Shown in pieces: positions 5,500-20,000 of a stretch of 20,000 nt of DNA. The position numbers and the translations under genes were made by a program. This DNA comes from Chiloscyllium plagiosum (Eukaryota): positions 14,222,709 to 14,242,708 of the forward strand of contig NC_057752.1 in NCBI RefSeq assembly GCF_004010195.1, in the 5' to 3' direction. The notes under the pieces were generated by a model, which was not told the DNA's origin, ran no database searches, and worked only from the letters and a program-made list of their open reading frames with translations. Every line of letters starts with the position of its first letter. Positions within the stretch are counted from its first letter, which is position 1.

Positions 5500-5770
5500 A
5501 GGGGTATGGTGGCTCAGTGGTTAGCATTGCTAACTCACAACGTCAGCAACCCGGCTTTGATTCCAGCCTCGGGTGACTGTCTGTGTGGAGTTTGCACATT
5601 CTCCCCGTGTCTGTGTGGGTTTCCTCCCACACTCCAAAGATATGCAGATTAGGTGGTTTGGCTGTGGGAAATACAGTGTTGTGGGGATGGGGGCAGGGGG
5701 AATGGTCTTCAGAGGGTCAGTCCAGACGTGATGGACCAAATGGTCTGCTTCCATACTGTAAGGATCCTAA
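5500..5770 (+). mobile_element. HE1-like V-SINE
   Basis: tRNA head TGGTGGCTCAGTGGTTAGCA, V-domain GTCTGTGTGGAGTTTGCACATTCTCCCCGTGTCTG, CR1-like 3' end. Confidence 0.88.
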
Positions 5771-6066: not shown

Positions 6067-8312
6067 CCATAGGCCATAAAGCATGGGAGCAGAAATTAGG
6101 CCATTCGGCCCATCAAGTCTGCTCCACCATTCAATCATGGCTGATAAGTTTTTCAACCCCATTCTCCTGCTTTCTCCCCGTAACCCTTGATCCCCTTGGT
6201 AATCAAAAACCTATCTATCTCTGTCTTAAATCTACTCAATGACCCAGCCCCACAGCCTTCTGTGGCAATGAATTCCATAGATTCCCCACTCTCTGGTTGA
6301 AGAAGTTTCTCCTTATCTCCATCTAAAAGGCCTTCCCTTTACTCTAAGGCTGTGCCCTTGGGTCCTAGTCTCTCCTACCAATGGGAACATCTCCCCACCA
6401 TCCACTCTGTCCAGGCCATTCAGTATTCTATATGTTTCAATTAGATCCCCCCTCATCCTTCTAAACTCCGAGTATAAATCCAGAGTCCTCAAACGTCCCT
6501 CATATGTTAAGCTTTTCATTCCTGGGACCATTCTTGTGAACTTCCTCTGTTCTAGGGCCAGTACATCCTGAGATATAGGGCCCAAAACTGCACACAATAC
6601 TCCAAATGTGGTCTGACCAGAGCCTTATAGAGCCTCAGAAGTGCATCCCCACTTTTGCATTTACTTTCCTGACTACTGACTCAACTTGCAGGTTTACCTT
6701 GAGAGAATCCGGGACTAGAACTCCCAAGTCTCTTTGCACTTCAGACTTCTGAATTTTCTCCCCCTTTGGAAAATAGTCCATGCCTCTATTCTTCTGACCA
6801 AAGTGCATGACCTCACACTTTCCCATGTTGTATCCCACCTGCCACTTCTTTGCCCACTCTCCTACCCTGTCCAAATCCTTCTGCAGCCTCCCCACCTCCT
6901 CAACGCTACCTGTCCCTCTACCTCTCTTTGTATCATCTGCAAACGTAGCCAGAATGCCCTCAGTTCCTTCATCGAGATTGTTAATGTATAAAGTGAGAAG
7001 TTGTGGTCCCAAGATTGAACCTTGTGGAACACCACTTGTCACCGGCTGCTATCCTGAGAAGGAACCTTTTATCCCCACTCTCTGCTTTCTGTCTGACAGC
7101 CAATCATCTATCCATACCAGCACCTTTCCTCTGACACCATGGGCCCTTATCTTACTCAGTAGCCTTCTGTGCAGCACCTTGTCCAAGGCCTTTTTGAAGT
7201 CCAGGTGGATAACATCCATTGGCTCTCCTTGGTCTAACCTGCTCGGTACTTCCTCAAAGAATTCTAGCAGATTTGTCAGGCATGACCTCCCCTTGATGAA
7301 ACCATGCTGACTTTGCCCTATTTTACCACATCCTTCCAAGTGTTCAGAAGTCTTAAGACGTATTAAGGGTGCGACTGTGGCTCAGTGGTTAGCACTGCTG
7401 CCTCACAGCACCAGGGACCCAGGTTCAATTCCAGCCGAGGGTGATTGTCTGTGTGGAGTTTGCACATTCTCTCCGTGTCTGCCTGGGTTTGCTCCGCTTT
7501 CCTCCCACAATCCACTGATGTGCAGGTTAGCTGAATTGGCCATGCTAAATTGCCCGTAGTGTTCAAGGATGTGTACGTTAGGTGCCCTAGTCAGATGTAA
7601 ATGTAGAGTGATGGGTTTGGGGCGATACTCTTTGGAGGGTTGGTGTGGACTTGTTGGGCCGAAGGGCCTGTTTCTGCACAGTAGGGAGTCTAATTCTCAT
7701 CCTTCACAATAGATTCCAGGATCTTACCCATGACTGAGGTTAGGCTAATCAATCTGTAATTTTCCATCTTTTGCCTTACTCCCTTTTTGAAACAGGATGT
7801 TACGTTAGTGATTTTCCATTCTCTGGGACCCTCCCTGATTCTAGTCATTCCTGCAGGATCACCACTAATGCCTCCGCTATCTGTTCAGTTAACTCCCTTA
7901 GAACTCTGTGGTGTAGTCCATCTGGTCCAGGTGATATATCCACCTTCAGGCCATTCAGTTTTTCTAGCACCTTTTCCTTGGCGAGGGCCACCATACTCAC
8001 CTCTGCCCCCTCACTCTCTTGAATTTTTGAGATATTACTCATGTCTTCCATCGAGAAGACTGATACAAAGTAATTATCAATTCCTCAGCCATTTCCTTGT
8101 TCCCCACTACTCTCTCTCCAGTGTCATTTTCCACAGCCCAATCTCCACTTTTGCCTCTATTTTGCCCAATATATAACTAAAGAAACTCTTCCAGTCTTCC
8201 TTTATGTTACTGGCTAGCTTACCCTCATATTTAATCTTCTCCCTCCTTATTTCTTTTTTTGTTGCTCTCTGTTGGTCTTTGTAAGCTTCCAAATCCTCTG
8301 GTTTCCCACTGC
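6067..8312 (-). mobile_element. CR1 LINE, about 1.9 kb of decayed ORF2 (RT domain) plus 3' UTR, interrupted by a SINE
   Basis: Collinear RT motifs in broken frames: ISPGPDGLHHRVLREL, QSQHGFIKGRSCLTNLLEFF, DVIHLDFKKALDKVLHRRLL, TSGVPQGSILGPQL, ATFADDTK, QRDLGVLV; multiple stops and frameshifts. Confidence 0.95.
7367..7693 (+). mobile_element. HE1-like V-SINE inserted in CR1
   Basis: GTGGCTCAGTGGTTAGCACTGCTGCCTCACAGCACCAGGGACCCAGGTTCAATTCC (A/B boxes), V-domain, 3' TTGGGCCGAAGGGCCTGTTTC. Confidence 0.92.
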
Positions 8313-9074: not shown

Positions 9075-9386
9075 ACCCACATCCCATGAAAGATGAAACA
9101 AACAGAAGGGAATGTCCAGTACATGAAATTGAAAGGTCCCTCCAATTTTTAAGAGTCATCTTTTGTCTTCTGATTGTCTACGTCCCAAACATGGACACAA
9201 AAGTACCCACGCGAGAAGGCAGACATTTTCCAAAGCTTTTGGTCTTCCACTCATCAGGATCGATGCAAGACTGGCACGTTTTAAACAATGGAGAAAGCGA
9301 GGACTGCAGATGCTGGAGATCAGAGCTGAAAATGTGTTGCTGGAAAAGCGCAGCAGGTCAGGCAGCATCCAAGGAACAGGAGAATC

Positions 9387-9414
9387 GACGTTTCGGGCAT
9401 GAGCCCTTCTTCAG
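9387..9414 (-). ncRNA. Minimal type-I hammerhead ribozyme core, intact
   Basis: CUGAAGA-A-GGGC(UCAU)GCCC-GAAA-CGUC; predicted cleavage 3' of the C at 9387. Confidence 0.75.
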
Positions 9415-9501
9415 GAATGAGGTAAAGTGGGCCAAGCAGGCTAAGATAAGGAGGGACAGTCCCTCCTCCCTACCTTTTATCTTAGCCTACTTTCCTCATT
9501 C

Positions 9502-9529
9502 CTGAAAAAGGGCTCATGCCCGAAACGTC
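9502..9529 (+). ncRNA. Minimal hammerhead core with G8-to-A mutation (probably inactive)
   Basis: CUGAAAA-A-GGGC(UCAU)GCCC-GAAA-CGUC. Confidence 0.65.
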
Positions 9530-9603
9530 GATTCTCCTGCTCCTTGGATGCTGCCTGACCTGCTGCGCTTTTCCAGCAACACATTTTCAGCTCTGATCTC
9601 CAG

Positions 9604-10171
9604 NNNNNNNNNNNNNNNNNNNNNNNNNNNNNNNNNNNNNNNNNNNNNNNNNNNNNNNNNNNNNNNNNNNNNNNNNNNNNNNNNNNNNNNNNNNNNNNNN
9701 NNNNNNNNNNNNNNNNNNNNNNNNNNNNNNNNNNNNNNNNNNNNNNNNNNNNNNNNNNNNNNNNNNNNNNNNNNNNNNNNNNNNNNNNNNNNNNNNNNNN
9801 NNNNNNNNNNNNNNNNNNNNNNNNNNNNNNNNNNNNNNNNNNNNNNNNNNNNNNNNNNNNNNNNNNNNNNNNNNNNNNNNNNNNNNNNNNNNNNNNNNNN
9901 NNNNNNNNNNNNNNNNNNNNNNNNNNNNNNNNNNNNNNNNNNNNNNNNNNNNNNNNNNNNNNNNNNNNNNNNNNNNNNNNNNNNNNNNNNNNNNNNNNNN
10001 NNNNNNNNNNNNNNNNNNNNNNNNNNNNNNNNNNNNNNNNNNNNNNNNNNNNNNNNNNNNNNNNNNNNNNNNNNNNNNNNNNNNNNNNNNNNNNNNNNNN
10101 NNNNNNNNNNNNNNNNNNNNNNNNNNNNNNNNNNNNNNNNNNNNNNNNNNNNNNNNNNNNNNNNNNNNNNN
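9604..10171. other. Assembly gap
   Basis: Run of N. Confidence 1.
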
Positions 10172-10484
10172 TTCAAGTTTCACAACATCTTTCCGATAGG
10201 AAGGAGACCAGAATTGCATGCAATATTCCAACAGTGGCCTAACCAATGTCCTGTACAGCCGCAACATGACCTCCCAACTCCTGTACTCAATACTCTGACC
10301 AATAAAGGAAAGCATACCAAACACCTTCTTCACTATCCTATCTACCTGCGACTCCACTTTCAAGGAGCTATGAACCTACACTCTAAGGTCTCTTTGTTCA
10401 GCAACACTCCCTTTGACCTTACCATTAAGTGTGTAAGTCCTGCTAAGATTTGCTTTCCCAAAATGCAGCACCTCACATTTATCT
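10172..10484 (-). mobile_element. CR1 LINE ORF2 internal fragment
   Basis: KVESQVDRIVKKVFGMLSFIGQSIEYRSWEVMLRLYRTLVRPLLEYCMQFWSPSYRKDVVKLE. Confidence 0.92.
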
Positions 10485-10682
10485 CATAACACATACAGCA
10501 CAGAAACAGACCATTCGGCCCGCCCAGTCCATGCTAACCATAATCCCCAAACCAAACTAGTCCCGCCTTCCCTATGCTTGGCCAATCTCCCTCCAAACCT
10601 TTCCTGTTCATGAACTTATTAAGTGTCTTTTAAACATTGTAACTGTACCCATAATCCACCACTTCCTCAGGAAGTTCATTCC
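10485..10682 (-). mobile_element. CR1 LINE short 3' end
   Basis: Homologous to 3261-3465 (AGAAACAGACC..CGG, AACTAGTCCC, TTTTAAACATTGTAAC, CTTCCTCAGGAAGTTCATTCC). Confidence 0.85.
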
Positions 10683-10687
10683 TACTA

Positions 10688-10970
10688 TGCCCAGCTCTGG
10701 TTACCCTGTTATAGGAAGGATATTATGAAGCTGGAGAGGGTTCAGAAGAGATTTACCAGGATGTTGAAGGGAATGGAGGGTTTGAGTTATAGGGAGAGGC
10801 TGGAGAGGCTAGAGTGTAGGAGGTTGAAAGGTGACCTTATAAAGGTTTATAAAATCATGAGGGGTACAAAAGGGTTAATGGTAGTTGTCTTTTCCCGAGA
10901 ATGGGGGATTTCAAGACTCGGGGGCTTATTTCTAAGGTGAGAGGAGAGAGACTTTGAAAAGACATGAGGG
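10688..10970 (+). mobile_element. CR1 LINE ORF2 C-terminal fragment
   Basis: QLWLPCYRKDIMKLERVQKRFTRMLKGMEGLSYRERLERLECRRLKGDLIKVYKIMRG. Confidence 0.88.
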
Positions 10971-11349
10971 CTTGATAGTACTGTTGTTGTTTCCAGAACC
11001 TATGTTATGGTGAGGGGTCCGATAACGACAGAATTGAATTGATGGATCCAAGAGGTTATTAAAAGATTAACTGTCTTTGATGTCGCTATGAAGTCCAACA
11101 TTTGGTTTTCTTGGAGATTTAAGTACTTGAAGGATTTTAAAGTATTGAATGGGCTTTTAGCAATGAAATATTATATATAGTGAAGTCTTGATACTTTAAA
11201 CTTCGTTTTATTTTATTCCAACATTGCTCCTGAGTCGACCCAATATTAGGTCATGGGTGAGTTGACACTGGTGATGTAAGGGTGGTTGCATAACTTGGCA
11301 TTGGGAGTATACAGCACCATAGGGATGAGTTGGAGGGTCATGGGTTGGC

Positions 11350-11686
11350 ATAAGTCATAGAGACGTACAGCACGGAAACAGACCCTTCGGTCCAACTCGT
11401 CCATGCCTTCCAGATATCCTAAATTCATCTAGCCCCATTTCCCAGCACTTGGCCCATATCCCTCTAAACACTTCCTATTCACGTACCAATCCAGATGCCC
11501 TTCAAATGTTGCAATTGTACCAGCCTCCACCATGTTACATACACACACAACCCTCTGCGTGAAAAAGTTGCCCTTTCGGTCCCTTTGAAATCCTTTCTCC
11601 TCTCACCTTATACCCATGCCCCTCTAGTTCTGGACTCCCCCATCCCAGGGAAAAGACCCTATTTACCCTATCCATGCTCCTCATGA
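11350..11686 (-). mobile_element. CR1 LINE (HER1-like) 3' end with internal deletions
   Basis: GTCATAGAGACGTACAGCACGGAAACAGACCCTTCGGTCCAAC..., collinear with 579-930. Confidence 0.9.
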
Positions 11687-11725
11687 ATGAAACATCTATC
11701 ACCCATCCTTGAACTGAGTGGCATT

Positions 11726-11865
11726 CTGGGCTATTTCAGAGGGTGGCTGCAAGCACTGCTGTGGGGTCTGGAGTCACGTGTAGGCCCAGACCAGGTAAGG
11801 ACATCAGATTTCCTTCCCTCAAGAACATGAGTGAACCCAATGGGGCTTTTATGACAATCGATGAC
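11726..11865. mobile_element. Old interspersed repeat fragment, probably LINE-derived
   Basis: GTAAGGACATCAGATTTCCTTCCC..ATGAGTGAACC is homologous to GTAAGGAGAGCAGATTTCCCTTCC..CATTCATGAACC in 13435-13580. Confidence 0.5.
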
Positions 11866-11879
11866 TGAATAAAAACCGT

Positions 11880-11955
11880 GGGTCATCAGAAATCTTAACC
11901 TTGATGTCTCTCCACAGACCCTGCCTGACCTGCCGAGCTTTCCCAGCAACGTCTG
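11880..11955 (+). mobile_element. Decayed Penelope-like terminal element fragment
   Basis: CTGCCTGACCTGCCGAGCTTTCCCAGCAAC matches CTGCCTGACCTGCTGCGCTTTTCCAGCAAC (9551, 19201); upstream GGGTCATCAGAAATCTTAAC may be a hammerhead remnant. Confidence 0.55.
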
Positions 11956-12019
11956 CACAGGATTACTGAGGTGAGCTTCATAGTTGAGATTTCTATCCCT
12001 GTTTTGGAAAGCCCACCAC

Positions 12020-12101
12020 TCCTGGGGTGAGATTTGAACCCATTCCCCAGAGCGTTGAGACCGGGTCAGATGGAGTCCAGTGACGGTGCCCGCACGCCAC
12101 C
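12020..12101 (-). mobile_element. Old tRNA-derived SINE head
   Basis: Minus strand GGTGGCGTG...GTCACTGGACT...CTCTGGGGAATGGGTTCAAATCTCACC (B-box); a related decayed copy lies at about 15465-15555. Confidence 0.5.
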
Positions 12102-12302
12102 TTGAGGCTTTGCCCTTTACAACTTGCGACCAGAGGGGAAGGGGGGGGGGCGGGGAGGTGTAATTTCAGGACGAAAATGGAAGACTTTCCAATGCTCGGG
12201 GATAGGATCCCCCTTTGCTGTTTTTCCACTCCTGTCCCACCACCCAGGCATCCATTCACCTGGTCACGGGCACAGTGTGTAAAACAATCCCATGTGGCAT
12301 TC

Positions 12303-12435
12303 GGAGAAAGTGAGGACGGCAGATGCTGAAGAGTCAGAGTCAAAAAGTGTGGCGCTGGGAAATCACAGCAGGTCAGGCAGCATCCGAGGAGCAGGAGAAT
12401 CGACATTTCGGGCACAAGCCCTTCATCAGGAATGA
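12303..12435 (-). mobile_element. Short Penelope-like terminal element (family A variant) with hammerhead core at 12402-12429
   Basis: Homologous along its length to 9290-9420; core CUGAUGA-A-GGGC(UUGU)GCCC-GAAA-UGUC (CpG-type change in stem III). Confidence 0.75.
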
Positions 12436-12679
12436 AAGCAAACTGCCAAGCAATCACTATCCAATGGCAGGTAGCCGTTCCAATATATGCTCCCTCTCTG
12501 CATCTTTTTACTTGGGATTGTATGAGCCAACCATCAAGAAGCCAGCAACCGACTTTGTCCCTGCAGGAGTCCCAGCAGCTCTTCCAGGCACAAGATTAAG
12601 GTAAAAATTTGTGTTGAGATGGGGCGATAATGACAGCAGGGAACAGTTAAGGAGAGGGTGCAGTTTGTTCCGAATCTCA

Positions 12680-13278
12680 GAGCATCGAGTAGAGGAGTTG
12701 GGAGGTCGTGTTGCAGCTGTACAGGATGTTGGACAGACCGCTTTTGGAATACTGCATTCAATTCTCTCGACTTGAGGGAGGATGTTGTAAAACTTGAAAG
12801 GGTTCAGAAAAGATTTACAAGGATGTTGTTGGGGTTGAGCTATAGGGAGAGACTGAACAGGCTGGGACTGTTTTCCCTGGAGCGTCGGAGGCTGAGGGGT
12901 GACCTTATAGAGGTTTATAAAATCATGAGGGGCATGGATAGGGTAAATAGGCAAAGTCTTTTCCCTGGGGTGGGGGAATCCAGAACTAGAGGGCATAGGT
13001 TTAGGGTGAGAGGGGAAAGATATAAAAGAGACCTAAGGGGCAACTTTTTTTCATGCAGAGGGTGGTATGTGTATGGAATGAGCTGCCAGAGGATGTGGTG
13101 GAGGCTGGTACAGTTACAGCATTTAAAGGACATCCAAATGGATATATGAATAAGAAGGGTTTAGAGGAATACGGGCCAAGTGCTGGAAAATGGGATAAGA
13201 TTAATTGAAGCTATCTGGTCAGCATGGACGAGTTGGACTGAACGGTCTGTTTCTGTGCGCTGTACACCTCTATGACTG
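12680..13278 (+). mobile_element. CR1 LINE (HER1-like) 3' portion
   Basis: EDVVKLERVQKRFTRML..LSYRERLNRLGLFSLERRRLRGDLIEVYKIMRGMDRVNRQSLFPGVGESRTRGHRFRVRGERYKRDLRGNFF, 3' UTR and CTCTATGACT tail. Confidence 0.95.
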
Positions 13279-13607
13279 AATGCCTTACAGCACAGGAAGT
13301 GGTGAGGTGAGTATTGAAAGGGATTTGGGCAGGCAATGTTAATATGGTAAATGACATTATCCATTTTGGAAAACAAAAAGGGAAGGCCAAGTATTTCTTA
13401 CCGACGAGGCTGAGTCCCTCATCTCTGAGTCACTTTTTTTAAATTCACTCCCAGGATGCAGGCATCACTAACTATTATTGACCATCTCTGAGTTCAGAGT
13501 CAACCACATTGTTAGGAATCTGTTAAGCAGACTGAGTAAGGAGAGCAGATTTCCCTTCCAAAAGGCATTCATGAACCATCACAGTTGCTCACCATTTACG
13601 ATTTGGT

Positions 13608-13717
13608 GTTGGACTGGGGTGGACAAAGTTAAAAATCCCAAACACCAGGTTATAGTCCAACAGGTCTATTTGGAAGCACTAGCTTTCGGAGTGCTGCTCC
13701 TTCATCGGGAGGTTGTG
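13608..13717 (-). mobile_element. Short Penelope-like terminal element (family B) with hammerhead core at 13680-13708 (U4-to-C)
   Basis: Minus strand CCGAUGA-A-GGAG(CAGCA)CUCC-GAAA-GCUA-GUGCUUCCAAAUAGACCUGUUGGACUAUAACCUGGUGUU; homologous to 15003-15036 plus 15357-15420. Confidence 0.7.
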
Positions 13718-13720
13718 ACC

Positions 13721-14994
13721 TCATAGAGTCATAGAGATGTACATCACTGCTTCGGTCCAACCCGTCCATGCTGACCAGATATCCCAACCCAATCTAGTCC
13801 CACCTGCCAGCACCCGGCCCATATCCCTCCAAACCCTTCCTATTCATATACCCATTCAAATGCCTCTTAAATGTTGCAATTGTACCAGCCTCCACCACTT
13901 CCTCTGGCAGCTCATTCCATTCACGAACCACCCTCTGTGTGCAAAAATTGTCCCGTAGGTCTCTTTTATATCTTTCTCCTCTCACCTTAAACCTATGCCC
14001 TCTAGTCCTGGACTCCCCGACCCCAGGGAAAAGACTTTGTCTATTTATCCTATCCATGCCTCTCNNNNNNNNNNNNNNNNNNNNNNNNNNNNNNNNNNNN
14101 NNNNNNNNNNNNNNNNNNNNNNNNNNNNNNNNNNNNNNNNNNNNNNNNNNNNNNNNNNNNNNNNNNNNNNNNNNNNNNNNNNNNNNNNNNNNNNNNNNNN
14201 NNNNNNNNNNNNNNNNNNNNNNNNNNNNNNNNNNNNNNNNNNNNNNNNNNNNNNNNNNNNNNNNNNNNNNNNNNNNNNNNNNNNNNNNNNNNNNNNNNNN
14301 NNNNNNNNNNNNNNNNNNNNNNNNNNNNNNNNNNNNNNNNNNNNNNNNNNNNNNNNNNNNNNNNNNNNNNNNNNNNNNNNNNNNNNNNNNNNNNNNNNNN
14401 NNNNNNNNNNNNNNNNNNNNNNNNNNNNNNNNNNNNNNNNNNNNNNNNNNNNNNNNNNNNNNNNNNNNNNNNNNNNNNNNNNNNNNNNNNNNNNNNNNNN
14501 NNNNNNNNNNNNNNNNNNNNNNNNNNNNNNNNNNNNNNNNNNNNNNNNNNNNNNNNNNNNNNNNNNNNNNNNNNNNNNNNNNNNNNNNNNNNNNNNNNNN
14601 NNNNNNNNNNNNNNNNNNNNNNNNNNNNNNNNNNNNNNNNNNNNNNNNNNNNNNNNNNNNNNNNNNNNNNNNNNNNNNNNNNNNNNNNNNNNNNNNNNNN
14701 NNNNNNNNNNNNNNNNNNNNNNNNNNNNNNNNNNNNNNNNNNNNNNNNNNNNNNNNNNNNNNNNNNNNNNNNNNNNNNNNNNNNNNNNNNNNNNNNNNNN
14801 NNNNNNNNNNNNNNNNNNNNNNNTCCATGTTGACTATCCCTAATCAGTCCTTGCCTTTCCAAATACATGTAAATCCTGTCCCTCAGGATTCCCTCCAACA
14901 ACTTGCCCACCACCGAGGTCAGGCTCACTGGTCTATAGTTCCCTGGCTTGTCCTTACCACCCTTCTTAAACAGTGGCACCACATTAGCCAACCT
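13721..14994 (-). mobile_element. Young CR1 LINE (HER1-like), probably one element spanning the assembly gap
   Basis: 3' end with TCATAGAGTCATAGAG tail and open C-terminal frame left of the gap; RLANVVPLFKKGGKDKPGNYRPVSLTSVVGKLLEGILRDRIY..IRDSQHG right of the gap, same strand and correct order. Confidence 0.88.
14065..14823. other. Assembly gap
   Basis: Run of N. Confidence 1.
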
Positions 14995-15002
14995 GATGAA
15001 GG

Positions 15003-15420
15003 TCACCTGATGAAGGAGCGGCGCTCTGAAAGCTAGATTTTTTTTTTAGATTACTTTACAGTGTGGAAACAGGCCCTTCGGCCCAACAAGTCCACACCGA
15101 CCCGCCGAAGCGCAAACCACCCATACCCCTACATTTACCCCTTACCTCATACTACGGACAATTTAACATGGCCAATTCACCTAACCTGCACATCTTTGGA
15201 CTGTGGGAGGAAACCGGAGCACCCGGAGGAAACCCACGCAGACACAGGGAGAACGTGCAAACTCCACACAGTCAGTCGCCTGAGGCGGGAATTGAACCCG
15301 GGTCTCTGGCGCTGCGAGGCAGCAGTGCTAACCACTGTGCCACCGTGCCGCCCACTGTGCTTCCAAATAAACCTGTTGGACTATAAACTGGTGTTGTGGG
15401 ATTTTTAACTTTGCTCACCA
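15003..15420 (+). mobile_element. Family B Penelope-like terminal element split by a SINE; hammerhead core at 15007-15035
   Basis: CAC-CUGAUGA-A-GGAGC(GGC)GCUCU-GAAA-GCUA-G, resuming at 15357 as GTGCTTCCAAATAAACCTGTTGGACTATAAACTGGTGTT, collinear with the reverse complement of 13620-13708. Confidence 0.75.
15037..15353 (-). mobile_element. Young full-length HE1-like V-SINE
   Basis: Minus strand starts GGGCGGCACGGTGGCACAGTGGTTAGCAC, B-box GGTTCAATTCC, V-domain, tail TAATCTAAAAAAAAAATC; CpGs retained. Confidence 0.95.
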
Positions 15421-15599
15421 TTTAGGCTAACGTTTTATTTTAAAACAAAGGTTGAATTGTAATTTCACCACCTACCGTGGTGAAGCCATGCCCCAAAACA
15501 TTAACCTGGGATTCGCAACAGCTCGTCCAGTGGCATTGCCACAATGCCATGCCACACGTCAACAGGCTAGGCAATTGGAAAGGTGAAGGGTGTGTCAGC

Positions 15600-16790
15600 C
15601 TTCATCACAAGGTGATTTCAGTGCAGGAGTTAAGATAACGTGCAGTGGTACAGAGCCTCGGTGGTGGGGCAGTGCCCAGAGCGCCAACAAGGACAAAAAT
15701 CACCACTACCAGCTCCCCCACATTTGTGGGAACGGCTGGGTAAACTCTGCACTCGGCTTCATGTCGACAGTGCAGGCCCTTACATGGGCTCAACGTTCTT
15801 AGTCATTGTCGACTCAAAATGGTCAGATGTGAATCGAGATCATTCGTCAAACACGGGGACAATGGCACAAAAACAGCAAGCAGCTTTTGAAATATATGGA
15901 CTCCTGGAAGTGTTGGTCACAGGCCATCGTTTACCAGCAGTAAATTTGAGTATTTTCTAAAGTCGAATGGTATTCATAATATACGGACAGCTCCATACAA
16001 TCCATCATCCAATGGCCTGGCCGAAAGAACAGTCCAAACTTTGAAGGCAGGCTGAAAGAAACAGCCTACAGTGTCACTTGATACCAAACTGTCCCAGTTC
16101 CCATCTGCTTATTGGACCATCCCTCATGCAATGACAGGGACAGCTCCAGCAGAGTTGCTAATGGGAAGAGGACTCCTCATCAGGTTAAACCTGGTCTTCC
16201 CGGACCTGTGGGGGTGGGGAGGGGGATGGGATTTCGGGGGGGGGGTGGGTGGCGGTGGGTGAAATGGCATCAGGAACGGGAATGGCGGACACAAGACTCT
16301 ACCAGCCGAGAGAGACAGTTTACCTCGGGTGATGAAGCTTAGTGTGTTGGCATTGCAGGAATGGCCCTGCGTGGGTAACAGGCATGGTCGATGTGAGGTC
16401 AGGCCCAGTGACGTATAAAGTTCAGGTAGGTGCGATGGTTCTGAACAAACATGTGGACCATATGGAAGCTGCAAACCATGCAGGAGCCAAATGGGCCCAG
16501 CTCCTTGACAGCCTGTCCAACTGTTCCCGAACCTAGGAGTTCTCTCTCTCTGTCAAGTGTTGAAGAGACCTCGGAATCTGAGATGGACACGGTGGATCTC
16601 GCTACCTCGACGCCTTTGCAGGCTGAAGAAGAGAATTAATTTCTGTCGAGATACTCCTGGCCCTCAGGGGCGAGGTAATGTCTGTTACACGCCACCCATA
16701 TTCAAAGCAGAGTTGTCAGTGCTAAAACGCCCCAGGAGGACCAACAAAAACCAGAACCAGCCGATGTCCTCAGACTCAGAGGGACAGGGA
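15600..16790 (+). mobile_element. Decayed Gypsy/Ty3 LTR retrotransposon integrase region
   Basis: Broken-frame motifs: GQCPERQQGQKSP..HLWERLGKLCTRLHVDSAGPYMGSTFLVIVDSKW; FLKSNGIHNIRTAPYNPSSNGLAERTVQTLK; TIPHAMTGTAPAELLMGR; WVTGMVDVRSGPVTYKV...HVDHM; purine-rich PPT AGAGGGACAGGGA at 16778-16790. Confidence 0.9.
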
Positions 16791-17014
16791 TGTCGGGATT
16801 GTAACAGGATCAGCTGGTGCAGGTTCCTAGACTGGGGCTGTTAACCTGGTTCAATCAGGGAGCCCTGGCTGACAAATAGAAACAGCAGTGTCAGGGGTTC
16901 TGCTCACTCTGAGAGCTGGCTCAGAGGTAGCTGGATCAGGGTCAGGGGTTCTCTACATGGAAATAAAGGGGGATCTTGGTGAAGGGATGCCAGTCTCTGT
17001 GGAGTTATTTTACA
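16791..17014 (+). mobile_element. 3' LTR of the Gypsy element
   Basis: Begins TGT directly after the PPT, ends TTACA, AATAAA at 16962-16967; no 5' LTR is visible to confirm the boundaries. Confidence 0.7.
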
Positions 17015-18680
17015 TGGAAACAGACCCTTCACTGACCAGATATCCCAACCTAATCTAGTCCCATTCGCCAGCACCTGGCACATATCCCTCTAAACCCTTC
17101 CTATTCATATACCCATCCAAATGCCTTTTAGATGTTGTAATTGTACCAGCCTCCACCACTTCCTCTGGTAGCTCATTCCATACACGTACCACCCTCTGTG
17201 TGAAAACGTTGCCCTTTAGGTCCCTTTTAAATCTTTCCCCTCTCACGTTAAACCTATGCCCCTCACCTTTCTTAAATAATGGCACCACGTTAGCCAACCT
17301 ATTTATCCTATCCATGCCCCTCATGACTTTATAAACCCCTATAAGGTCACCCCTCAGTCTCTGACACTCCAGGGAAAACAGCCCCAGCCTGTTCAGCCTC
17401 TCCCTACAGCTCAGACTCTCCAACCCTGGCAACATCCTTGTAAATCTTTACTGAACCCTTTCAGGTTTCACCACATCCTTCCGATAGCAGGGAGACCAAA
17501 ACTGAACACAGCATTCCAGCCTAACCAATGTCCTGTACAGCCGCAACATGACCTCCCAACTACTGTACTCAATACTCTGACCAATAAAGGAAAGCATACC
17601 AAACGCCGCCTTCACTATCCTATCTACCTGCGACTCCACTTTCAAGGAGCTATGAACCTGCACTCCAAGGTCTCTTTGTTCAGCAACACTCCCCATGACC
17701 TTACTGTAAAATGTATAAGTCCTGCCCTGATTTATCTTTCCAAAATGCAGCACCTCACATTTATCTGAATTAAACTTCATCTGCCACTTTGGCCCATCTG
17801 ATCAAGATCCTGTTGTACTCTGAGGTAACCTTCTTTGCTGTCCACTATACCACAAATTTTGATATCTTCTTCAAACTTACCGGCCATACCTCCTACGCTC
17901 CCATCCACGGCACGGTGGCACAGTGGTTAGCTCTGCTGCCTCACAGCACCAGAGACCCAGGTTCAATTCCCACCTGTCTGTGTGGAGTTTGCACATTCTC
18001 CCTGTGTCTGCGTGGATTTCCTCCCACAGTCCCAAAATGTGCAGGTTAGGGTGGATTGGCCATGCCAAATTCCCTGTAGTGTTAGGTGTAGGGGAATGGG
18101 TCTGGGAGGGTTGCTCTTCAGCGGGTCGGTGTGGACGTTTTGGGCCAAAGGGCCTGTTTCCACACTGTAAGTAATCGAATCATTTATATAAATGTCAAAA
18201 AGTAGTGGACCCAGCACCGAGCTCTGGGTAAAACCACTGGGTCACAGGTCTCTAGTCTGAAAAACAACCCTCCACCAGCACTCTGTATCTCTCTTACCTT
18301 CAAACTAATTTTGTATCCAAGTGGCTAGCTCCCCCCAGATTCCACGTGATCTAACCTTTTTAACCAGTCTACCATGTGGAACCTTGTCAAATGCCTTGCT
18401 GAAGTCTGTATAGACAATATCTACCGCTCTACCTTCATCAATCTTCTTCGTTACTTCTTCAATAAACTAGATTAAGTTTGTGAGACATGATTTCCCACGT
18501 ACAAAGCCAAGTTGATGATCCCAAATCAGTCCTCGCCTTTTCAAATGCATGTCAATCCTGTCCCTCAGGATTCCCTCCATCAACTTGCCCACCGTCAGGC
18601 TCACCGGTCTACAGTTCCCTGGCTTTTCCTTACCACCTTTCTTAAATAATGACACCACGTTAGCCAACCTCCAGTCTTCA
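17015..18680 (-). mobile_element. CR1 LINE (HER1-like), RT to 3' UTR, with deletions and a nested SINE
   Basis: ANVVSLFKKGGKEKPGNCRPVSLT..GFVRGKSCLTNLI; MKFNSDKCEVLHFGK..QRDLGVQVH; RLRGDLIGVYKVMRG..VWNELPEEVV. Confidence 0.95.
17908..18181 (+). mobile_element. HE1-like V-SINE inserted in CR1
   Basis: CGGCACGGTGGCACAGTGGTTAGC, GGTTCAATTCC, V-domain, tail CTGTAAGTAATCGAATC. Confidence 0.93.
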
Positions 18681-19114
18681 CTCGGAGAGTTTAAAATTAA
18701 TAGGAAGAAATCTTAAAAAGATTGCTGGTGCTTGAAGATAACAACGCACAGGGACCGGATGAGATGTAACCAAGGATTTTGAAGAAAGGTGAGGGTGGAG
18801 ATTGCAAGGTCACTGGCTACAATCTTTCCTGGACTTGGGAATGTGCCAGAAGACCAGAGAATTGTAAACATGACAGCCTCATCCAAGAAAGGTTGTCATA
18901 ATAAATCCCAGTAATTACAGGCCAGCGAGTCTAACTTCAGTGGGAAAACTTCTAGAAACCATTATCCTGGATAGAATTAGTAATCACACAGAGAAAGGTG
19001 AGATGATTAGGAAAAGCCAGCACAGATTTCTCAGGGGTAAGTCATGTTTAGAGCTGAAAATGTGTTGCTGGAAAAGTGCAGCAGGTCAGTCGGCATCCAA
19101 GGAGCAGGAGAATC

Positions 19115-19142
19115 GACGTTTCGGGCATGAGCCCTTCTTCAG
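19115..19142 (-). ncRNA. Minimal type-I hammerhead ribozyme core, intact
   Basis: CUGAAGA-A-GGGC(UCAU)GCCC-GAAA-CGUC. Confidence 0.75.
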
Positions 19143-19151
19143 GAACTCTTC

Positions 19152-19179
19152 CTGAAGAAGGGCTCATGCCCGAAACGTC
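19152..19179 (+). ncRNA. Minimal type-I hammerhead ribozyme core, intact
   Basis: CUGAAGA-A-GGGC(UCAU)GCCC-GAAA-CGUC. Confidence 0.75.
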
Positions 19180-19867
19180 GATTCTCCTGCTCCTTGGATG
19201 CTGCCTGACCTGCTGCGCTTTTCCAGCAACACATTTTCAGCTCTGATCTCCAGCATCTGCAGTCCTCGCTTTCTCCCTGAGCGATAGGGAACACAGTCGG
19301 TGGGAGTGGGGTTCTCCAGGGCTGTGTTTTTGAGACCATTGCTTTTCCTGATGTACCTTAACAATCTGGATCTTGCGGTAAAGGTGACAATTTCAACGCT
19401 TGCAGATGACACCAGCATGCAGAAGCGATTTACAGGCATGGTTCCAGGGATGAGGATCGATTAATGACGTTGGGATTGTTCTCCCTGGGAGAGCAGAAGG
19501 CTGAGAGGGCAATCTGATCGAGATTTTCAGAATCATGAGTGAGTTGGACAGAGTCGACAGGGAGGAGCCGATTCCACGAAGAGGGGCCTCGATTTAAAGT
19601 GACACGTGAATGGTGGAAGAGCGATGTGAGGAAAATCCTTTTCACTCAGCAAGAATACATTGCCTGAAAATGTGGAGTCAGGTTCAAGCCAGGGATTCAA
19701 AAGGGGCATTGGATGTTTATTTGGATAGGAATGGGGTAAAGACAGGAAATTGGCCCCAAAGGGATAGAATCAGAGCTGGTATGATCAGCCGGATGACCTC
19801 CTTCAGTCCCATAACAATTCTGTCATCCTGTGTAATGTCACCTATGGCAATTTGTTATCATATTTTG

Positions 19868-20000
19868 GATCAGTGGTGCTGGAAGAGCACAGCAGTTCAG
19901 GCAGCATCCGAGGAGCAGCAAAATCGACGTTTCGGGCAAAAGCCCTTCATCAGGAATAAAGGCAGAGAGCCTGAAGAGTGGAGAGATAAGCTAGAGGAGG
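19868..20000 (-). mobile_element. Penelope-like element 3' terminal region (related to family A), running off the window; intact hammerhead core at 19926-19953
   Basis: CAGGCAGCATCCGAGGAGCAG homology to 12375-12395; core CUGAUGA-A-GGGC(UUUU)GCCC-GAAA-CGUC on the minus strand. Confidence 0.75.

Follow-up and report, generated by a model that had tools for sequence, protein, structure and literature searches.

Minimal hammerhead ribozymes in the termini of two Penelope-like element families of the shark Chiloscyllium plagiosum, and the 5' boundary of their copies

Introduction

Minimal hammerhead ribozymes have been described in the pseudo-long terminal repeats (pLTRs) of metazoan Penelope-like elements (PLEs; Cervera and De la Pena 2014, PMC4209133), among them the fish elements Xena, Poseidon and Neptune (PMC4209133), and their cleavage as dimers goes back to Lunse et al. 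(as cited in PMC6765202). Penelope has a promoter inside its pLTR (PMC2377424). For Poseidon of Anolis carolinensis, Frangieh et al. (2024, PMC11167929) traced the PLE tail to two internal start sites of reverse transcription and reported internal initiation, uncut RNA as the dominant template and protein-assisted cleavage. A CX2-5CXXC linker marks the Neptune and Nematis elements, the former being paraphyletic, and is not a mark of Penelope and Poseidon (Craig et al. 2021, PMC8557442). Axolotl retrozymes reach up to 120,000 copies (PMC7229834; bioRxiv 10.64898/2026.07.22.740005), and a PLE expansion is known from whale shark introns (bioRxiv 10.1101/443036). Here we describe hammerhead motifs in a 20,000-nt stretch of the Chiloscyllium plagiosum genome (assembly GCF_004010195.1, contig NC_057752.1, positions 14,222,709 to 14,242,708, forward strand; "the window" means this whole stretch). 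They almost certainly are the pLTR hammerheads of two endonuclease-bearing PLEs, families A and B, and we regard it as likely, taking the explanation as a whole, that most copies in the window are short leader insertions reverse-transcribed from uncleaved RNA.

Hammerhead motifs and their parent elements

A preliminary description of the window had listed eight motifs, named here by their first position (9387, 9502, 12402, 13680, 15007, 19115, 19152 and 19926; strands are given in the feature list below). Direct inspection of the sequence confirmed all eight at these positions and strands, as well as the additional A ahead of stem II in 8/8. A relaxed scan for CUGANGA, a stem and GAAA matched nine times in the window, whereas 200 dinucleotide shuffles averaged 0.185 matches and never exceeded 2. 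Of the nine, six are listed motifs and three are looser matches; two listed motifs were missed because their core is mutated. CUGANGA is kept in 6/8, and core, stem II and palindrome are all intact in four (9387, 19115, 19152 and 19926). The others are damaged by G8A (9502), by U4C and a mismatch in stem II (13680), by loss of the palindrome, CG to UG (12402), or by a G-U pair at 10.1-11.1 (15007); the last has also lost the 3' strand of stem I to a short interspersed nuclear element (SINE) inserted one base past the cut site. Judged by their sequence, the window motifs are genuine minimal hammerheads. An Rfam search of the window returned 18 matches at E<=10, none of them to a hammerhead family; the matches to microRNA families correspond to the inverted pairs of copies and score under their gathering thresholds. 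These pairs (9290-9603 and 19050-19277) are predicted to fold into near-perfect hairpins (-256 and -197 kcal/mol), which would bury the hammerhead motif.

Extending copies in the 5' direction, as the preliminary description had proposed, led to reverse transcriptase (RT) and GIY-YIG genes upstream in both families, in agreement with its placing of minimal type I hammerheads in PLE termini. In family A, a 3' untranslated region (UTR) of about 155 nt separates the hammerhead from the stop codon of a frame ending in a GIY-YIG C-terminus. The locus L064 (2148-3833) holds an open reading frame (ORF) of 561 amino acids with RVT_1 (E 1.4e-8), GIY-YIG (E 5e-4, below the curated cutoff) and a CX4CXXC linker, and among 25 loci picked by the endonuclease C-terminus a family A core follows downstream on the same strand in 20. 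In family B, about 850 nt of CA-rich UTR lie between the hammerhead and a second RT-endonuclease frame (L108, L109; RVT_1 match in L109). In both families (A: L064; B: L108, L109) the endonuclease, with internal cysteines, follows the RT in a single ORF, although the frames examined are incomplete, long A copies being broken by runs of N; the long "open frames" of some other extended loci were set aside as mostly inflated by such runs. The RT-endonuclease proteins of A and B share 29% identity. The named homologs closest to them belong to sharks and a ray, at 61-81% identity; relatives from invertebrates are at around 50%. The CX2-5CXXC linker ahead of GIY-YIG is present in A and B and in 101 of 120 homologs among the matches listed. 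By this linker, both parent elements are likely of the Neptune type.

Covariation and predicted folding

Five lineages were compared, A, B and the smaller C (9 copies), D (2) and E (2). MAFFT misaligned the stems of the families and pairs were therefore counted by script: 37 of 40 stem I and stem II cells are paired, whereas shuffles gave a mean of 27.8 and a maximum of 34 (0/5000 as high), a contrast that is inflated by the relatedness of the lineages and by the hand-assigned structure, with D and E resting on two copies each. Pair 1 of stem I is C-G or U-A and pair 2 is U-A, A-U or C-G; pair 3 of stem II is G-C or A-U and pair 4 is C-G, G-C or U-A. The palindrome 15.2-16.2 that replaces helix III reads CG in A and GC in B, and the CA majorities of C and E are consistent with CpG decay. 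The covariation of stem II and palindrome that had been noted between two families thus holds over five lineages, and extends to stem I and to the 3-8 pair (C-G or U-A). As for family B, its distinct stem II stood, but the earlier GGAG/CUCC with loop CAGCA belongs to the decayed 13680 copy only, the majority being GGAGC/GCUCC, 5 bp with a 3-nt loop. The extra A is retained in all 10 family majorities or seeds.

Within families, the core is conserved no better than the downstream leader, as expected of neutral copies. The ribozyme would be under selection in the master lineages, and the genomic copies are probably inert. Stem II is predicted at a pair probability of >=0.9 in A and B, and stem I at 0.35-0.73 in D. 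Stem I contains a U-U in A1 and is 4 bp long in A3. Palindrome duplexes are predicted at -1.7 to -4.5 kcal/mol and, since ACGU cannot pair with AGCU, any dimer should be family-specific. Family D, related to A, has a U3-A8 core pair, a 5-bp stem II and a 4-bp stem I (L125:4821-4859 (+), L149:7852 (+) and L169 (-)); the U3-A8 swap has already been published for Schistosoma PLEs.

Copy number in the genome

The claim that ribozyme-bearing termini are very abundant is borne out by the 3.56-Gb genome, which contains 288,668 matches to a strict core pattern without stems, about one per 12 kb; the reversed pattern, used as control, has 2,657. Exact anchors were found 66,367 times for one A subfamily and 39,452 times for family B (control 0 for each). 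An unbiased sample of forty 10-kb regions at round coordinates (381 kb excluding N) holds 65 ends of A type, 17 of B and 28 strict cores. Of these cores, 20 have a stem II of >=4 bp, 12 the palindrome in addition, and 9 a stem I of 2 bp as well. Extrapolated from 9/28, the genome holds roughly 90,000 cores with both stems and palindrome, and it possibly is the most hammerhead-rich reported among vertebrates.

The repeat as 5' leader and the 3' ends of copies

Positions within copies are numbered from hammerhead position C3 (+1; the preceding base is 0), the cut site lying after +28 in family A and after +29 in family B. In the family B locus L089, the 3' UTR, hammerhead and tail run directly into an ATG and the N-terminal PLE frame, and this tail-to-ATG junction was spanned by 40/40 scored places in the genome. 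The ATG sits at about +120 (+118 in L089, owing to a 2-nt deletion), where many family B copies stop. In head-to-tail junctions of family B the ATG follows immediately on the hammerhead and a leader of about 90 nt, so that the repeat is also the 5' UTR in this family. In family A, 30 scored 3' ends fall at +125 (10) and at +83 to +95 (18, among them at least 4 where the alignment breaks off at an indel). The tandem junction (in B), the inverted partners and the two classes of 3' ends are hallmarks of endonuclease-bearing PLEs.

Two other readings of the leader were dropped: as coding sequence in family A, where the frames, read by eye, differ between A1 and A2; and as the site of a conserved poly(A) signal, where family B carries AATAAA (B1, B3) or ATTAAA (B2) at +39 to +44, possibly such a signal, but which is weak, being present in B and A3 and not in A1 and A2. 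Past the hammerhead, the leader is predicted to fold into a long stem-loop (window 19193-19262, with equivalents in A2, A3, D and E, and B leader +46 to +115). Its core, GAUGCUGCC...CCAGCA, is common to families with differing hammerheads and is a candidate protein-binding and priming signal.

The 5' boundary

The 5' ends of A1 copies were mapped in the first 55 of the 66,367 exact matches to a downstream 32-mer, a sample from the first 1.9 Mb of one chromosome whose selection is blind to the 5' end because the anchor lies downstream. Forty-four ends were resolved, eight copies run past -59 and three abut N. The resolved ends pile up at -5 to 0 (23) and at +1 to +12 (13), with three upstream of -6 and few further in (2 at +13 to +26, 2 at +27 to +31, 1 at +39). 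Per base, 16% of copies stop at -5 to 0, against 0.17% at -59 to -6 (Fisher p 3e-16, taking copies as independent, which inverted partners are not) and 0.4% at +13 to +44. Among 19 unselected family B copies, eight start at -10 to +6 and nine extend past -50; of the two that start later, one is the SINE-split copy of the window. Solo short copies carry target-site duplications of 7-14 bp and are therefore primary insertions. BBCABW is an initiator consensus, and A1, A3 and B1-B3 have a motif of this kind, with the A placed at -3 in the two A subfamilies and at -7 in the three of B. In two other organisms, the depth of reads and contigs increases in a step at this 5' boundary too, a step inflated by upstream subfamily differences.

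A pile-up at the cut site, considered as a sign of cleavage in vivo, was dropped after base-level mapping: the window +27 to +31 holds 2/44 ends, not enriched over background (p 0.18). Two junctions, L153:4267 (-) and L205 (+), fall exactly at +29, the first base past the cut site, and one of them joins the end of the ORF to +29; they are single events, not above background. Extra G bases at junctions, considered as cap-derived, belong to target duplications or inverted partners.

A search of sequencing runs with the stretch returned 20 rows from 9 studies and 5 organisms, with no RNA holder among the matches listed. One raw RNA run contains 3,194 reads from both strands, of which 92% continue into unlike sequence; these reads fit read-through of genomic copies. 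A second run yielded no matching reads. We rather favour, as the simplest reading of the 5' boundary, run-off of reverse transcription at the 5' end of an uncut RNA template.

A possible replication cycle and its alternatives

In the explanation that we prefer, transcription would start upstream of the core, at the initiator-like motif that lies 4 nt before it in A and 8 nt before it in B. The protein would nick DNA and prime cDNA synthesis internally on the RNA, using two sites separated by about 35 nt; in family B the outer site would be the start codon. Such two-site internal priming is suggested by the two classes of 3' ends and by what was found in vitro for Poseidon of Anolis. When primed in the 5' leader, synthesis would run off the RNA 5' end and leave an insertion of 90-130 bp, often with an inverted partner, whereas priming in the downstream repeat would give longer, randomly truncated copies. 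A slow ribozyme, active as a dimer within its own family or when assisted by the protein, would leave most templates uncut. A more specific version, that the short copies are integrated strong-stop DNAs, primed at the start codon, copied to the RNA 5' end and then either integrated or transferred to the 3' repeat, is a tentative idea which we think has a minority chance of being right. If true, the pLTR would be a genuine analogue of U3-R-U5 with the hammerhead in R and a jump as in long terminal repeat (LTR) retroelements, several hundred thousand junctions would map the start of the PLE transcript, and the ribozyme would be nearly silent on templates.

Several observations weigh against the overall account and have to be set beside it. 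The A1 ends come from that one chromosomal segment, the pile-up of family B is broader and thinly sampled, and the initiator-like motif is absent from A2. No cap signature emerged from the G bases ahead of junctions, and a single-cell poly(A) library, ill-suited to the purpose, showed no site at which many RNA molecules start or end. Stem I is predicted to form rarely (0.00-0.15 in A1, A3 and B1). No tail-to-ORF junction was seen in family A among the extended loci examined, no Pfam match was reached by the family B endonuclease, and the assignment to Neptune is based on the linker motif and not on a tree.

The short copies may instead be a self-propagating, SINE-like non-autonomous family, a 125-nt unit with an internal promoter and both priming sites that is copied in trans by the PLE protein. 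They contain every cis signal postulated above, combine a sharp 5' limit with target-site duplications and outnumber the long copies (41 of the 52 A1 copies not abutting N start at -5 or later), and rotifer PLE termini are known to work in trans (PMC3846280). Such a family is nevertheless unlikely, given that in the unbiased loci short and long copies are alike in their core and tail diagnostics (A1: 26 short, 16 long; A3: 4 short, 1 long), that 3' ends remain at the two PLE tail sites and that no host sequence is carried along. Less probable still is a processing boundary, at which the enzyme would stall, jump or fold back on reaching the 5' edge of a hammerhead that is folded or bound by protein. 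The position would suit it: in A and B alike, the boundary falls on the 5' strand of stem I. Many of the ends at +1 to +12, moreover, join inverted sequence at short microhomologies. On an RNA template read 3' to 5', however, the fold is first encountered on its 3' side (about +30 to +35), where few ends lie, partnerless solo copies stop at the same place, and copies passing -5 almost never stop within the next 54 nt.

The preliminary description had spoken of a retrozyme-like system, and tandem non-LTR retrozymes, self-cleaving and spreading via circular RNA monomers, are described in one chondrichthyan (bioRxiv 10.64898/2026.07.22.740005). In the small contigs L013-L017, family A ends are repeated many times, but L016 is a satellite array of 28 bp that carries a PLE end along. 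The window copies are singles or head-to-head pairs, head-to-tail arrays of 150-450-bp monomers were absent from the window and the sampled loci, the motifs are minimal and without a stable helix III, and the cut site shows no excess of ends. Dispersed singles and inverted pairs, several solo copies with target-site duplications, and short and long copies in the same subfamilies, the short ones keeping the scissile site, speak against the retrozyme-like system, which we hold to be very improbable. One variant among the small contigs has a perfect 6-bp stem I.

Reverse transcription of mostly uncut RNA from within the leader thus remains the account that we prefer. On it, insertion ends would record the PLE replication cycle, that is the RNA start, the priming sites and the uncut template, and the in vivo role of PLE hammerheads would become testable from genome sequence and one 5'-end experiment.

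Copies in the window and neighbouring elements

The PLE copies and the SINE that splits one of them are as follows.
9290..9457 (-): family A1 PLE end with about 40 nt of 3' UTR, intact hammerhead 9387-9414 and leader up to +125; forms the left arm of a head-to-head pair
9460..9603 (+): family A1 PLE end, right arm of the pair; hammerhead 9502-9529 with G8A; runs into a run of N
11921..11950 (+): family A leader remnant without hammerhead (90% over 30 nt, E 1e-6), absent from the preliminary list
12303..12435 (-): older short copy of A type; the palindrome of its hammerhead (12402-12429) is broken; starts about 6 nt ahead of the core
13603..13717 (-): short copy of family B spanning -8 to +106; its hammerhead (13680-13708) has U4C and a stem II mismatch
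14989..15036 (+): 5' part of a family B copy; duplicated start and hammerhead 15007-15035
15037..15355 (-): SINE of about 320 bp, inserted one base past the hammerhead cut site of the family B copy
15356..15415 (+): 3' leader part of that copy, resuming after the SINE; 92-95% identity to 13618-13679
19050..19145 (-): short copy of family A1 reaching from -2 to about +93, with an intact hammerhead (19115-19142); inverted partner
19149..19276 (+): short copy of family A1 reaching from -2 to +125, with an intact hammerhead (19152-19179)
19873..20000 (-): family A2 PLE end; intact hammerhead 19926-19953; extends beyond the window into a 2.7-kb run of N

The UTR of the copy at 9290..9457 matches long A1 copies such as L064, and the older copy at 12303..12435 is 86% identical to 19149-19276. 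Past the run of N that bounds the A2 end lies an opposite A2 copy (L011:3768), so that the two A2 ends point outwards on either side of the gap (window 19954-20000, L011:1002-3720); runs of N are frequent within long PLE copies of this assembly. The SINE, which we take to be HE1/V-SINE-like, matches further window copies at 5508-5627, 7377-7560 and 17908-18176. Fragments of long interspersed nuclear element RT (RVT_1), presumably CR1-like, lie at 6635-7381 (-) and in many other stretches, and several PLE ends are inserted in them. A degraded stretch at about 15700-16200 (+), one ORF of which has no Pfam match, resembles what we assume to be an LTR-retrotransposon integrase.

Comparison with known systems

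No description of shark PLE hammerheads was found in literature listings, which leave subscription papers and Repbase outside, and the species list of Lunse et al. may include sharks; no shark name was found in the text consulted or in the searchable supplement of PMC4209133. The earlier statement that the system was not known to be characterised in sharks therefore stands for the animals and not for the class, which has been published since 2014 (PMC4209133). Likewise, no published description of the 5' pile-up was found in listings, and Fig. S2 of PMC11167929 may show the same boundary.

The motifs share with the published PLE hammerheads the type I fold, the extra nucleotide between 9 and 10.1, G10.1-C11.1, the palindromic 15.2-16.2, the short helix I, the U3-A8 variant and a genomic distribution of mostly dispersed single motifs from truncated PLEs with close opposite-strand pairs (PMC4209133). 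They differ in helix II, 4-5 bp here and 7-8 bp in Schistosoma, and in number, the same paper giving about 4,000 for coelacanth and about 9,000 for Xenopus, against 288,668 here by a looser, stem-free pattern. Metazoan non-LTR retrozymes (PMC7229834; bioRxiv 10.64898/2026.07.22.740005) likewise have type I hammerheads, PLE ancestry and high copy number; they form head-to-tail repeats of 150-450 bp with canonical hammerheads and circular RNA, whereas the copies described here are dispersed, have minimal hammerheads and begin at the motif's 5' edge. With the Anolis Poseidon element PAc (PMC11167929), families A and B have in common the hammerhead at the pLTR-ORF junction and would also share the two internal RT start sites that set the tail and the uncut RNA as template; however, the PAc ORF begins at stem II and is primed inside, while the ATG of family B lies about 120 nt past the core, at the presumed outer priming site, and A and B carry the CX2-5CXXC linker that Penelope and Poseidon are without. 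Features in common with Neptune and Nematis (PMC8557442) are the C-terminal GIY-YIG holding two cysteines in its motif, DKG, the linker, 5' truncation, an inverted 5' copy and an optional tail of 30-40 bp. The motifs are thus real, covarying and of a known kind, new shark representatives of the PLE minimal hammerheads; what is added here is their copy number, the tail-to-ATG junction in family B and the sharp 5' boundary.

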